From: Shigella phage SF1-1
Sequence record: PQ571307
Strand: one strand, 5' to 3'
Length of the DNA stretch: 64,000 nucleotides
This document shows positions 13,176 through 21,204 of the stretch, one piece after another. The position numbers and the translations under genes are program-made. The notes under the pieces were generated by a model, which did no database searches, had not been told where the DNA came from, and was given only the letters and a program-made list of their open reading frames with translations. How positions within the stretch are numbered: position 1 is the first letter of the stretch; the number at the start of each line of letters is the position of its first letter.

Positions 13176-13610
13176 ATGTTACAAGTTCCTGCTAAGTTTG
13201 TTGAAGGCGCTATCCACTCTTACCGTCAAACATGTAAGAGGGCAAGAAACTGTTTAGATGGTCTGGTGGCAAAAACCTATACTGTTGAAAAGAAAAAACG
13301 TTGGTTTGGCAAAGATGTTTACGAAGTTAATATTTTTGGTGAACATAAACTAAACCACGATACTCCTGAAAACATGTTAGAAATATTTCTAAGAGATGAC
13401 AAAATATCTCCTATGGATTACCAACTTTTAAAATTTTATGATTCTTCTTTGGCTATTGATAAGTTTGTTGAAGATATTCTGTCTAGAAAAACAGATAAAA
13501 ACACTTATCCTCTAGAGGCTGATCAAATAGGATTATTAAATGAGATTTCATCCTTTAAAGAGTTGGATAATATTACAAAAGAGGAGATTTTAGATGGCAT
13601 TAGATTATGA
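13176..13610 (+). CDS. hypothetical protein
   Basis: ATG after CATAGGAGAT. Confidence 0.5.
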   Translation: MLQVPAKFVEGAIHSYRQTCKRARNCLDGLVAKTYTVEKKKRWFGKDVYEVNIFGEHKLNHDTPENMLEIFLRDDKISPMDYQLLKFYDSSLAIDKFVEDILSRKTDKNTYPLEADQIGLLNEISSFKELDNITKEEILDGIRL

Positions 13611-14103
13611 TCGCCCAACGAGCGATTATTATCCGACACCGCAAAAAGCAATCAATAGTTTGTTTAGTGTTATAGATTTCAAAAATCTAAAGGAAGAAGG
13701 TTGGGTTTTTGCAGAACCTTGTAGAGGTGAAGCTGAAGCGATTTATCGCCATTTTCCTGAAGGTTCAGAATATTGTGAACTTGAAGAAGGTAAAGATTAT
13801 TTTAGTCATGAATGGGAAAATCGTCCCGACATTATAATCACAAATCCTCCATTCAAGTTAGCAATGGAGTTCTTGGAAAAGAGCTTAAAAGAGGCGGATG
13901 TTTGTATTTATCTTCTTCGGTTGGGCTTCTTGGAGTCAAAGAAACGACGAGAGTTCCATCAAAAGAATCCACCAACAAACCTTATAGTCCTTTCAGAACG
14001 GCCTTCGTTTGTTGCAGGTGGAACAGATAAGACAGCATACGCTTGGTATGTATACGACCCAAAGAATCGTTTGGGCCTCTCTCAACCATTTTATTTTGTT
14101 TAA
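13594..14103 (+). CDS. small DNA N6-adenine methyltransferase-like protein
   Basis: DYYPTP near the N-terminus and ITNPPF (NPPF catalytic motif) in a 169-aa protein, as in small phage Dam-type MTases. Confidence 0.55.
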   Translation: MALDYDRPTSDYYPTPQKAINSLFSVIDFKNLKEEGWVFAEPCRGEAEAIYRHFPEGSEYCELEEGKDYFSHEWENRPDIIITNPPFKLAMEFLEKSLKEADVCIYLLRLGFLESKKRREFHQKNPPTNLIVLSERPSFVAGGTDKTAYAWYVYDPKNRLGLSQPFYFV

Positions 14104-14115
14104 GGAGTGTGAACT

Positions 14116-14352
14116 ATGGGTAAACTAATTATGACAGTGGCTATTGATTTTGATGAAGTAGATGAAAGCCTCAACCTTTCACTTTCTACTGACGTAGATG
14201 GCGAAATGGATAATATTGAAGCAGCTACTGCTCTTTTCTTCAAAAAAGCCATTGAAGTTTATGCCGAACATGCTGCAAATCAGGCAGTAGATTACGGTGG
14301 TATCGTGCGAGCTTTAGTTCACTCTACCGAGGGCAATGACTGGGAAGATTAA
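14116..14352 (+). CDS. hypothetical protein
   Basis: ATG after AAGGAGTGTGAACT. Confidence 0.45.
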   Translation: MGKLIMTVAIDFDEVDESLNLSLSTDVDGEMDNIEAATALFFKKAIEVYAEHAANQAVDYGGIVRALVHSTEGNDWED

Positions 14353-14555
14353 TGGCTTACAATTATTACTGCATTTATGCACATGAAAAGAAAAAAGGTG
14401 ACACTGGGACTAACGTTTATGCGGAGTCTGAATCTCATGCAAAAGAGATTGGTGCTATCCTTTTATCACGCTGGACTGGAAATAATTACAGTGCAGAAGA
14501 TATGTTTGCAGAAGTGGATTCTAATATCCAAGAAGACAACATAACAACTACGTGA
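14352..14555 (+). CDS. hypothetical protein
   Basis: Start overlaps the previous stop. Confidence 0.4.
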   Translation: MAYNYYCIYAHEKKKGDTGTNVYAESESHAKEIGAILLSRWTGNNYSAEDMFAEVDSNIQEDNITTT

Positions 14556-14564
14556 TATACTTAT

Positions 14565-14590
14565 ACTCCCTTTTCGGAGGGAGTATTTTA
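14565..14590 (+). terminator. stem-loop / weak terminator
   Basis: ACTCCC-ttttcg-GAGGGAGT followed by ATTTTA. Confidence 0.4.
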
Positions 14591-14600
14591 AGGAGGGATT

Positions 14601-14795
14601 ATGCAGAGCGGAGAAGAACTTTTAGAGAAACAATTCTCAACGCGTCAACAAGCTTTAAGTTATATGGTTTTTCTAAGCAATCTTGATGTGAATGAGATAC
14701 TTTTACGGCGCGAAGGTAATTTCTGGAGCGTTAAATATCATGCAACAAGGTCTGTAATCTACCTGGAAGAGGCGGAATTCTCTTTGGTAGAATGA
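14601..14795 (+). CDS. hypothetical protein
   Basis: ATG after AAGGAGGGATT. Confidence 0.45.
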   Translation: MQSGEELLEKQFSTRQQALSYMVFLSNLDVNEILLRREGNFWSVKYHATRSVIYLEEAEFSLVE

Positions 14796-14809
14796 TCCGA
14801 GGAGTAGTT

Positions 14810-19098: not shown

Positions 19099-19107
19099 TA
19101 AATAATA

Positions 19108-19129
19108 ACCCGCTTCGGCGGGTTTTTTT
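19108..19129 (+). terminator. rho-independent terminator
   Basis: CCCGC-ttcg-GCGGG hairpin followed by TTTTTTT. Confidence 0.7.
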
Positions 19130-19130
19130 A

Positions 19131-19159
19131 TTGACAGGAATCTGGAAGCTTGATAAACT
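19131..19159 (+). promoter_or_regulatory. sigma70-like promoter
   Basis: TTGACA, 17-bp spacer, TAAACT, immediately after the terminator. Confidence 0.5.
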
Positions 19160-19189
19160 TAACCTATCAACAAATAGAGGAGAAATATT

Positions 19190-20131
19190 ATGGTGTTAAT
19201 TGGTAGCTGTGCATTACAAATTCATGCTATGGACATGGGAAAAGACTTGTATCGCCCTTGTGTAGATCTAGATTACCTGTGTACAGAACAAGAGTGGGAA
19301 GAATTATCAAAAATGTTCTCTCAAGATGAGTTTGTTGAACTTGTAGAACGTAAAGGGAACAAAGGCCATGTCAAAATGATAGCTGGTGCACATTTGGAAT
19401 ACGATATTGCTTCTCAAGGAGATAGCACAGAAGCTTTGATTAGTTATTGTGAAGACTCTGATGATATTCGTCGAACTTACGCTGGACACGTTGTTGCTCC
19501 TTTAGATGTGCTCTACCTCCTTAAAATGAGTCATCGTTTTAAAAAGGATAGTCCTCACTTCTTTAAAACTATGAAAGATATTCATTTCATGCGATCACTG
19601 GGCGCAAAGATCCCAGAAAATCTTAAGAGTATTTATGAGTTGCGTGAGAAAGAAACATACACTTACTCTCATCCGAACTTAAACGTAAAAAGTAAAGACT
19701 TCTTTAAAGGTGATGAGGTTCCGTATGTTTATGATCATGATTCTATCCATGAAGCAATCGCGGTAATGGATGCTCCAGCATATAAATCTTATATGAAAGA
19801 TGGAAGTGAAGTTATGACCAGCAAAGAAAAGTTTTTTGCTCAACCAAAACATGTGCGCCTGTTAGGTGTTTATGAAGAAGCGTGTGTTTTGGCTTTGGAA
19901 CGTTCACAAATTCCTTTCGGTGAAGAGATCGGAGGTCCAACCCCTAAGCAAAGTTTTATAATGGCTTTATCTAAAGTCTGCACATCCATCACTAGTGGTT
20001 GGTTTAGGGAATATGCTTGGGAAAACTTTTATGTTGTTACTAAGCTATATGAAAACATGGGCGAAAACGACTATGTTGAACGTTTTAAAGCTAATCAACA
20101 TGTAGTTAAGCCTTTTGAAGGAGGTTATTAA
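19190..20131 (+). CDS. hypothetical protein (313 aa); possible Pol-beta-superfamily nucleotidyltransferase fold
   Basis: N-terminal LIGSCALQ ... VDLDYL resembles a GS ... DxD nucleotidyltransferase motif (weak); ATG after AGAGGAGAAATATT. Confidence 0.45.
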   Translation: MVLIGSCALQIHAMDMGKDLYRPCVDLDYLCTEQEWEELSKMFSQDEFVELVERKGNKGHVKMIAGAHLEYDIASQGDSTEALISYCEDSDDIRRTYAGHVVAPLDVLYLLKMSHRFKKDSPHFFKTMKDIHFMRSLGAKIPENLKSIYELREKETYTYSHPNLNVKSKDFFKGDEVPYVYDHDSIHEAIAVMDAPAYKSYMKDGSEVMTSKEKFFAQPKHVRLLGVYEEACVLALERSQIPFGEEIGGPTPKQSFIMALSKVCTSITSGWFREYAWENFYVVTKLYENMGENDYVERFKANQHVVKPFEGGY

Positions 20132-20132
20132 T

Positions 20133-20528
20133 ATGTGTGGATATCTTTCAGAAAGTTATTTCAAAGTGACCCATGAGGATTTAGAAAAAGCACGATTGAA
20201 ACTGACAGCTATTATTGAATACTCTAATACTGTTGATCACAGATTAAAGACTACTAAAGTATCTGTTCCTTGTTGGTTAGGTTTACGGCATAAAACAATG
20301 TCTCAGCATGACCATGTTGTTCGAGAGATGCATGGTTGGTGTTGGTTTCACGATGTGGCTCTGCATTTTGGTTATATTACAGAAGAAGAGCATAGATTCT
20401 GTGAACTAACATATCGTATTCCAACCCTTCACGATTTAGATTTGTGGAAGAAAGCAAACGAGATTTTTCTTACAGAAAGTGATTGGCGTAAAGTTATGGC
20501 TTGTCTTGAATGGAGGGGTAATGAGTAA
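20133..20528 (+). CDS. hypothetical protein
   Basis: ATG after GAAGGAGGTTATTAAT; internal start of track ORF 20115. Confidence 0.45.
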   Translation: MCGYLSESYFKVTHEDLEKARLKLTAIIEYSNTVDHRLKTTKVSVPCWLGLRHKTMSQHDHVVREMHGWCWFHDVALHFGYITEEEHRFCELTYRIPTLHDLDLWKKANEIFLTESDWRKVMACLEWRGNE

Positions 20529-21204
20529 AACAGTTTTGTCTATGTTTGACGGATCTGGGATCATGGTGTTACGTTATGCCGAAGCAGGTCACAAGTGTTT
20601 TTGTGTAAACGCTGATGAAGGGGATCACGGTAAATACGAGGTTAGGATGGAGCACCCAAACATAACCTATGTGAATGCCTGGATAGATTCTACATTCAAC
20701 CCTGAAGATCATGGGATACCTAAACCCGATATTATTTTTGGATTTCCACCTTGCACTATGTTAGCAGGTAGTGGTAGCAAACACGAACGTAGCACAGAGG
20801 AATTAGATGAAGCTTTAGCTAATATTCGTGTAGTGGAAGCTTTGGGTAACAAATATAATGTTCCTTGGATGATTGAGAACCCAGTAGGTAAACTTTCAAC
20901 CTTATGGCGTAAACCCGATTTTTACTTTGATCCTTATGAGTATGGTGGGTATTTGTTTGAAGAGGAAGGAAGCTTTCATCCTAAAATGCCTACCCGTGAT
21001 GGGTATACAAAGAAAACTTGTATTTGGCACGGCAATGGTTTTGTTCAACCAGTGAAGAAACCAGTAGATCATATAGGCTGCTTCTGGGGTTGGAAAAGCT
21101 TAGGCGGAGCTAGTGCAAAAACAAAACAACTTAGATCCCTAACCGCACGTGGTTTTGCTCGTGCTGTGTTTTTGTCTAACAATCTTCTAGATAAGGAGAA
21201 ATAA
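20521..21204 (+). CDS. compact C5-methyltransferase-like protein (tentative)
   Basis: Ordered motifs resembling C5-MTase motif I (FDGSG), motif IV (FPPC) and motif VI (ENP); only about 228 aa with no obvious target-recognition domain; ATG after TGGAGGGGTA. Confidence 0.4.
   Translation: MSKTVLSMFDGSGIMVLRYAEAGHKCFCVNADEGDHGKYEVRMEHPNITYVNAWIDSTFNPEDHGIPKPDIIFGFPPCTMLAGSGSKHERSTEELDEALANIRVVEALGNKYNVPWMIENPVGKLSTLWRKPDFYFDPYEYGGYLFEEEGSFHPKMPTRDGYTKKTCIWHGNGFVQPVKKPVDHIGCFWGWKSLGGASAKTKQLRSLTARGFARAVFLSNNLLDKEK

Follow-up and report, generated by a model that had tools for sequence, protein, structure and literature searches.

Two putative orphan methyltransferases of Shigella phage SF1-1: a compact Dcm-like cytosine enzyme and a minimal N6-adenine-type enzyme

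A 64,000-nucleotide stretch of the genome of Shigella phage SF1-1 (record PQ571307; hereafter the window) carries two short open reading frames (ORFs) on the + strand, ORF1 at 13594-14103 and ORF2 at 20521-21204, whose products have the motifs and the predicted folds of methyltransferases (MTases). The reading we favour, to which a probability of about 0.72 is given as a whole, is that these are two independent orphan MTases lying in the early/metabolic + strand block of a Phapecoctavirus. By analogy with a tested relative, ORF2 would be an S-adenosylmethionine (AdoMet)-dependent C5-cytosine DNA MTase of a compact phage “Dcm-like” family; ORF1 would be an AdoMet-dependent N6-adenine MTase cut down to its Rossmann core. 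The folds, the motifs, the homology of ORF2 to the tested enzyme and the selective constraint on both genes are established by the data below. The window is of Phapecoctavirus type (Stephanstirmvirinae, ~150 kb), of which more than 60 deposited genomes exist at 97-99% identity; over positions 13000-21900 it shares 99.4% identity with Escherichia phage EF1-1 and 97-98% with some 60 further genomes of Phapecoctavirus. The MTase identity of both genes is already in public phage records and so is not new: in RefSeq NC_052654 gp215 (13594-14103) and gp199 (20520-21203) are both labelled “DNA methyltransferase”, and the record of phage ukendt names ORF1 “putative DNA methyltransferase” and ORF2 “Dcm”. 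Since both genes are annotated already, and production of 5-methylcytosine (5mC) by a relative of the cytosine enzyme has been demonstrated experimentally, the finding is judged to be an ordinary one.

ORF2 encodes a protein of 227 amino acids; the length of 228 given in the initial annotation had counted the stop codon. The start was set at 20521, which is favoured by the deposited annotations and by the position of a GGAGG Shine-Dalgarno sequence (20512-20516, 4 nt before the ATG). A longer alternative with a GTG start from 20479 is also listed, and the start at 20521 overlaps by 8 nt the stop of the upstream ORF (20115-20528). It had been noted that sequences resembling C5-MTase motifs I, IV and VI occur in order in this protein, and this is borne out: the motif I AdoMet loop FDGSG (FxGxG; residues 9-13, 20545-20559), which aligns with “FSGAG” of M.HaeIII, is followed by motif IV, FPPCT (residues 75-79, 20743-20757, with FPPC at 75-78 and the catalytic cysteine at position 78), and by motif VI, ENP (residues 119-121, 20875-20883). 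K164-K165 (21010-21015) occupy the position of the motif VIII arginines, and the helix LRSLTARGFARAV (residues 204-216, 21130-21168) is one which, from its resemblance to the canonical C5-MTase motif, we take to be motif IX-like. Conservation was read from alignments of 40 diverse homologs for each of the two proteins. In the ORF2 family FDGSG, F75, P76, C78, T79, E119-N120-P121 and K164 are invariant and K165 is nearly so; judged from the sequences, FDGSG, FPPC and ENP are not chance matches. The family does depart from the canon at three points. The QxRxR of motif VIII is replaced in ORF2 by Y-T-K-K-T, the residue after Cys78 is an invariant threonine where canonical enzymes have glutamine (Pro-Cys-Gln), and the residue before the catalytic cysteine, proline in ORF2, is D, S or Q in other family members.

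Evidence on ORF2 comes from a relative that has been tested biochemically. In mutants of K42, a T1-like phage, that escape retron Ec86 (Eco1), a 711-bp dcm gene is disrupted without exception; plasmid-borne K42 Dcm alone was toxic, the toxicity being confined to Ec86+ cells, and after its expression in E. coli liquid chromatography coupled to mass spectrometry (LC-MS) detected 5mC on the multicopy single-stranded DNA (msDNA) of Ec86 (10.1101/2023.08.16.553469). The C82A/E128A/K175A/K176A mutant was inactive and left no 5mC on the msDNA, defence was lost when CCTGG of the msDNA was changed to AATGG, ACTGG or CATGG, and the authors of the preprint superposed or modelled K42 Dcm on DNMT3A (6F57) (10.1101/2023.08.16.553469). 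A later citing paper treats the K42 Dcm-Ec86 result as established. The K42 genome is 95.4% identical to that of BASEL phage KarlJaspers (Bas06), in which bas06_0055, 711 bp in length, encodes a “Dcm-like C5 cytosine methyltransferase” of 236 amino acids whose C82, E128, K175 and K176 fall in FPPCT, ENP and FKKT. ORF2 is 50% identical to KarlJaspers Dcm over its full length (residues 5-220 against 6-234, E 1e-71), and C78, E119, K164 and K165 of ORF2 align with the mutated K42 residues C82, E128, K175 and K176. Because of this full-length homology and the alignment of these four residues, ORF2 is placed in a family of which one representative has been tested biochemically. The two proteins are alike in their compact size (236 and 227 amino acids) and in FDGSG, FPPCT, ENP and the lysine pair, but half of their residues differ, mostly in loops between motifs VI and IX. 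Furthermore, K42 and KarlJaspers are 51-kb T1-like siphoviruses whereas ORF2 is carried by a 150-kb myovirus, and the gene neighbours are unrelated.

The family to which ORF2 belongs is large and of uniform length. ORF2 matches PHROG 757, labelled DNA methyltransferase, at E 1.8e-84; a word-indexed search returned 870 homologs, nearly all of 215-245 amino acids, the best 120 of them at least 60% identical, and an exhaustive search gave 965 clusters at 50% identity, mostly of 200-260 amino acids. Phage records with a member of the family number 1,487, among them those of T1-like siphoviruses, Vequintavirus, Krischvirus, Dhillonvirus and PVP-SE1-like phages; at the DNA level no copy of ORF2 was found in the phi92-like BASEL phages, which were for that reason left out of the evidence. 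ORF2 is therefore small because the whole family is, not because it has been truncated.

Profile searches alone make ORF2 look odd. PF00145 is matched neither by Dcm of the K42/Bas06 type nor by ORF2, a precomputed match to it being found in a single ORF2 homolog (P0064), and sequence and profile searches of the PDB gave nothing significant for ORF2, the best being M.HaeIII at E 0.08. The AlphaFold model of ORF2 is confident (pLDDT 89.3, pTM 0.88), and in a Foldseek search the catalytic domains of DNMT3B and DNMT3A come out on top (E 1.9e-8 to 1e-6, probability 1.0, TM-score 0.52-0.58). Only about 27 residues lie in the model between the motif-VIII-like strand (166-171) and the C-terminal motif-IX-like helices, so that a large variable recognition domain is absent; in the family alignment these residues are highly conserved rather than variable. 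The suggestion that the protein is too short for a conventional target-recognition domain is thus upheld by this short gap, and ORF2 does not match the Pfam C5-MTase profile, which is 324 positions long. The further suggestion that it could depend on a partner did not hold up: the 50%-identical K42 enzyme is active alone from a plasmid, no conserved partner gene was found for ORF2, and its neighbours differ between Phapecoctavirus and KarlJaspers.

DNMT3A and DNMT3B, the best structural matches of ORF2, share with it a recognition region that is short compared with that of bacterial type II enzymes, but sequence identity is 13-21%, the DNMT3 domain is larger (~280 amino acids) and works as an oligomer with DNMT3L or with itself, and in ORF2 KK replaces the RxR of motif VIII, and the catalytic cysteine is followed by T and not by Q. 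Canonical PF00145 enzymes in general are alike in motif I FxGxG, in the motif VI glutamate and in three-dimensional fold, and unlike in motif VIII, in their large recognition domain and in reaching the Pfam gathering threshold. The host Dcm/M.EcoRII type, also PF00145, would perform the same chemistry, has lent ORF2 its “Dcm” nickname in GenBank and possibly has the same or an overlapping target; however, ORF2 is half the size, it lacks the large recognition domain, and no vsr gene is linked to it. ORF2 is not an ortholog of the 472-residue K-12 Dcm, with which it gives a BLASTP E of 0.29 and an hhalign probability of 1.9%.

What ORF1 and ORF2 themselves do, at which target sequences and in what biological role, we infer. 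For ORF2 the proposed course is that AdoMet would be bound at the FDGSG loop, Cys78 would attack C6 of a flipped-out cytosine and Glu119 would protonate N3, with Lys164 and Lys165 standing in for the motif VIII arginines; where a large recognition domain is usual there would, as in DNMT3A/B, be short, highly conserved loops (about residues 137-200). The enzyme would act alone and, by analogy with K42 Dcm, would probably methylate at or within CCWGG-like sites, whether these lie on phage DNA or on any further DNA present in the cell. Such methylation would shield those sites against EcoRII-type restriction, at the price of triggering retron Ec86/Eco1.

ORF1 encodes 169 amino acids and is preceded by GAGGAG (13581-13586), read from the sequence as a Shine-Dalgarno element ending 7 nt before the ATG. 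Its motif X-like AdoMet-binding element YPTP (residues 13-16, 13630-13641) aligns with “fYTPr” of the PacII M subunit, T15 being invariant in the family and Y13 and P16 nearly so. The motif I-like AdoMet loop EPCRG (residues 41-45, 13714-13728) has E41, P42 and C43 invariant and G45 nearly so, and in NPPF (residues 84-87, 13843-13854), the catalytic motif IV of amino-MTases, N84, P85 and P86 are invariant while position 87 is F or Y. T83 and several core residues are also invariant, and in this family too the motif matches are not due to chance. The order X, I, IV with the (N/D)PP(Y/F) of the γ class is thus kept, and these elements align with those of the PacII M subunit. ORF1 matches PHROG 799, labelled DNA methyltransferase, at E 2.8e-59; it has 247 homologs, mostly of 165-180 amino acids, and its family is found in more than 500 phage genomes. 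Pfam and NCBIfam gave nothing significant (the best was EcoRI_methylase at E 0.02, its 14.7 bits falling short of the 26.4 required), nor did sequence and profile searches of the PDB, in which DpnA, PacII and METTL5 appeared at E 0.06-0.4. The model (pLDDT 90.1) is a bare Rossmann core, the protein ending with the core at residue 169, and its top Foldseek match is M.TaqI. The proposal that this NPPF protein is a small N6-adenine MTase agrees with the invariant motifs, the PHROG match and the fold, and the structure prediction advised as a check found MTase folds for both proteins; assignment of ORF1 as an N6-adenine-type amino-MTase core is well supported. Literature searches found no characterised member of the PHROG 799 family.

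Some members of the ORF1 family carry additional elements. A subset has an insertion of about 20-25 residues with CxxC...CxCGG after a conserved RPSF/RPCF segment, the protein of Vibrio phage VPUSM 8 has a C-terminal zinc-ribbon Pfam match, and the PVP-SE1-like homologs (226 amino acids) are extended at the C terminus by low-complexity sequence. Such additions, which ORF1 itself lacks, may serve to bind nucleic acids.

Two other groups of small phage adenine MTases were considered as relatives of ORF1 and set aside. The T1-type Dam (PF05869; e.g. Bas06 gp42) is likewise a small phage N6-adenine MTase with (D/N)PPY/F but is otherwise unrelated beyond the neighbourhood of motif IV: hhalign gave a probability of 15% against Bas06 Dam, ORF1 has no PF05869 match, and in its family only two homologs match PF05869 (E 0.02-0.03). 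The non-specific phage adenine MTases Hia5, Hin1523 and Nme1821 are α-class, Dam-like proteins of 33-38 kDa from Mu-like prophages.

Both genes are under selection. Against phiWec190, the most diverged congener, nucleotide identity is ~80-82% and protein identity 90-93%, and the ratio of nonsynonymous to synonymous substitution (dN/dS) is 0.048 for ORF1 and 0.016 for ORF2, with the motif residues unchanged throughout; dS is near saturation, so that the exact ratios are rough, although the constraint itself is clear. These comparisons show strong purifying selection on both genes. This, together with hundreds to thousands of homologs of the same length with invariant catalytic residues, makes it very improbable that either or both are decayed, catalytically dead remnants. 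Such decay would account for the failure of both proteins to reach the curated Pfam and NCBIfam thresholds and for the non-canonical motifs IV and VIII of ORF2, but the experimentally active Dcm of the K42/Bas06 type is likewise without a Pfam match, and dN/dS is low with every motif residue kept.

The fold, as modelled, does not settle whether the substrate polymer of ORF1 is DNA or RNA. Fold scores are a tie, PH1948 (13.3) and METTL5 (13.0) standing against MmeI (13.0) and TaqI (12.9). It could be supposed that ORF1 is an RNA N6-adenine MTase of the METTL5/Erm/KsgA/TrmM kind, working on host or phage rRNA or tRNA and, for example, retuning translation; the target-normalised Foldseek TM-score is highest for PH1948 (0.50), and 169 amino acids with no DNA recognition domain resemble the small RNA enzymes. 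An N-terminal YPTP is found in METTL5-type enzymes too and does not discriminate. However, the γ-class DNA MTases (MmeI, TaqI, BseCI, HsdM, CamA, PacII and BsaXI) score equally and account for roughly half of the 20 best matches, the top match is M.TaqI, the zinc-ribbon insertion of some homologs suits DNA or RNA binding equally, and the window has no tRNA genes. METTL5, PH1948, Erm and KsgA are rRNA enzymes, METTL5 needing TRMT112; ORF1 has no sequence-level match to them, and the gene neighbours of its kind in prophages are DNA methylases and replication genes. In particular, the homologs at 80 bacterial loci lie in prophages, in replication/early regions adjoining P2-type CII/CI/GPA modules, integrases and D5-type primases, and they stand beside bona fide DNA methylases, canonical PF00145 C5 methylases at 8 of the 80 loci and N6_N4 methylases at 5. 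This genomic context favours DNA as the substrate, and an RNA target is considered decidedly unlikely.

If the target of ORF1 is most likely DNA, its specificity is possibly relaxed. The γ-class N6-adenine DNA MTases (M.TaqI, the MTase domain of MmeI, M.BseCI, HsdM) share the catalytic-domain fold of ORF1, but ORF1 lacks the C-terminal recognition domain of TaqI and MmeI and has no S-subunit partner, and it falls under the Pfam thresholds for N6_Mtase, Eco57I and EcoRI_methylase. An adenine MTase with no sequence specificity, or one that needs a separate specificity partner as HsdM needs HsdS, is unlikely, but it would suit a fold that stops with the Rossmann core and shows no recognisable target-recognition domain, given that among the nearest DNA enzymes TaqI and MmeI have big C-terminal recognition domains, and HsdM and PacII rely on an S subunit. 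Adenine MTases of phage origin that lack specificity are known, albeit from the different α-class family. On the other hand, no neighbour is conserved across PVP-SE1, rV5, Staphylococcus and Vibrio phages or across the 80 bacterial loci, at which neither an S subunit nor an endonuclease recurs; no S-subunit-like gene was seen. Synteny extends over the PhoH-protease-MTase neighbourhood among rV5-like myoviruses; the gene directly upstream of the ORF1 homolog, however, is not conserved, as seen in PVP-SE1, rV5, a Staphylococcus phage and a Vibrio phage. The second MTase adjoining the ORF1 homolog in the Staphylococcus phage was considered as an ORF2 relative, which would have made a linked pair, and proved to be an ordinary N6_N4 MTase.

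For ORF2, several points weigh against the favoured reading. Its identity to the tested enzyme is only 50%, and the presumed recognition loops differ most, FHPKMP and HIGCFWGWKSLGG in ORF2 standing against DFPDIIP and DDKDNPGWAKTGG in Bas06; because most differences lie in the loops between motifs VI and IX, its site may differ from that of the K42 type. The CCWGG specificity of K42 Dcm was itself assumed from host Dcm and not mapped, being supported by the msDNA mutants only, and msDNA from the dcm+ host MG1655 carried little 5mC in the absence of the phage enzyme (10.1101/2023.08.16.553469). Activity, substrate form or site must therefore set the phage Dcm apart from host Dcm. Further, no Pfam family is found for ORF2 at E <= 0.1 and NCBIfam is likewise below threshold, and the K-K for R-x-R of motif VIII, the T for Q after the cysteine and the variable residue before it are unusual for a C5-MTase. 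It is conceivable, though quite unlikely, that ORF2 does not make plain 5mC at CCWGG but reads another or a shorter site or prefers hairpin or single-stranded DNA, as would suit an msDNA methylated by the phage enzyme and not appreciably by host Dcm, recognition loops unlike those of K42 Dcm, and a recognition region that is minimal in the AlphaFold model; CCWGG is, however, conspicuously unpurged from the window, and LC-MS on the K42 relative found 5mC itself. A more remote version of the same alternative is that ORF2 begins a hypermodification by adding some other group at C5, perhaps using the dTDP-rhamnose pathway of the phage. The complete RmlABCD pathway lies 10 kb upstream, a role in DNA glycosylation has been speculated upon in a published comment, and phage C5-MTase homologs that transfer carboxymethyl groups have been reported (PMC12783734). 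Against this, Pfam and PHROG scans identified no TET, hydroxymethylase or DNA glycosyltransferase adjoining ORF2, and neither the heavy purging of restriction sites from the genome nor the sensitivity of relatives to restriction-modification (RM) fits hypermodified DNA.

Taken jointly, it is possible but on balance unlikely that the site read by ORF2 differs from CCWGG or is shorter, or that ORF2 favours hairpin or single-stranded DNA, and that the ORF1 family is a sequence-non-specific DNA adenine methylase or an RNA (rRNA/tRNA) m6A MTase of large virulent phages rather than a conventional site-specific DNA methylase. A site or substrate preference of that kind in ORF2-type enzymes would explain why retron Ec86 is triggered by phage Dcm and not by host Dcm. 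The preferred reading nevertheless remains that of two independent orphan DNA MTases, with ORF2 acting at CCWGG-like sites.

The window strongly avoids palindromic restriction sites. Neither CCWGG (81 observed, 79 expected) nor GATC (313 observed, 292 expected) is avoided. CCSGG is absent (8.3 expected) and CTSAG occurs 8 times (45.8 expected); GGCC, CCGG, GTAC and CTAG are depleted to 0.38-0.48 of Markov expectation, and 19 of the 64 six-base palindromes do not occur at all, including CTGCAG, GGATCC, CGATCG and GCATGC, each expected 6-11 times. The unavoided GATC and CCWGG fit methylation protection of Dam/Dcm-type sites, which is circumstantial evidence, as host Dam and Dcm would give the same pattern. 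From the heavy loss of palindromes it would seem that the SF1-1 phage relies on site avoidance as its main passive defence.

Anti-restriction is the textbook role of phage orphan MTases and, by analogy, is plausible for ORF1 and ORF2. It is a difficulty for this role that in the BASEL study the Vequintavirinae and their relatives are exceptionally RM-susceptible; in T1-like phages the same study could not tie RM resistance to MTase genes in any simple way. Vequintavirus homologs are present at ~48% identity, JohannBauhin carrying a homolog of ORF2 and magaca homologs of both. Since relatives carrying both genes are very RM-sensitive, any protection by ORF1 and ORF2 must be narrow and site-specific at most. 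Literature searches for methylome or restriction-digest data on the MTases of Phapecoctavirus, rV5 and PVP-SE1 gave annotation-level statements only.

The dTDP-L-rhamnose pathway is encoded on the + strand by RmlB (6905-7897), RmlA (7906-8784), RmlC (8781-9347) and RmlD (9341-10183), each with Pfam E <= 1e-66, within a nucleotide-metabolism block (301-1917 and 2862-6064 nearby) that holds NrdAB, glutaredoxin, a divergent ThyX-like protein of 332 amino acids and an NT5C-like nucleotidase. These rhamnose genes have been called “peculiar”, and rhamnosylation of hydroxymethylated bases has been speculated upon (Olsen et al.). That restriction sites are heavily avoided in the window, and that relatives are sensitive to RM, speaks against hypermodification of the DNA.

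Some other features of the window, and of the records matching it, may be mentioned. Other unusual accessory genes surround the MTases on the + strand at 12438-13130, 16754-17359, 19190-20131 and 22389-23204; these are an HslV/proteasome-like peptidase (PHROG 1040; Pfam Proteasome 1e-5), a DprA-like protein (PHROG 768), a DUF7277-DUF7275 protein (E 1e-75) and a Sir2-family protein (Pfam 3e-22; PHROG 2162). The ORF at 14810-15382 (+, 190 amino acids) is called “histidyl tRNA synthetase” in Pharokka-style records and has no Pfam match at E <= 0.001; being far too short for such an enzyme, it probably bears a propagated misannotation. The sign of the GC skew flips at ~24 kb and ~56 kb, where the coding strand switches. 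About 1.5 kb at 40003-41559 has no annotated coding sequence in NC_052654; a tRNA cluster was considered for this gap at 40.0-41.6 kb and ruled out, as ARAGORN found no tRNA gene in the whole window, this interval included. Host names are in doubt for MG065650.1, OP562383.1 and other records: “Campylobacter phage B15” (150.7 kb) and “Acinetobacter phage vB_AbaM_ABPW7” share 99.3% identity with Phapecoctavirus genomes of E. coli over ORF2, the matches include one Pseudomonas-named record, and several more “Campylobacter phage” MG0656xx records resemble rV5-like or T1-like E. coli phages. The host labels of these Campylobacter-, Acinetobacter- and Pseudomonas-named records look unreliable.

The result confirms the existing annotation, and its practical value is predictive. 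The documented cost of a Dcm-like enzyme is the triggering of retron Ec86/Eco1 (10.1101/2023.08.16.553469). By analogy, a Phapecoctavirus with the Dcm-like ORF2 should protect those sites that ORF2 methylates and should be sensed by hosts bearing Ec86/Eco1, such as BL21; this predicted sensing would be relevant to the choice of strains for production or therapy.

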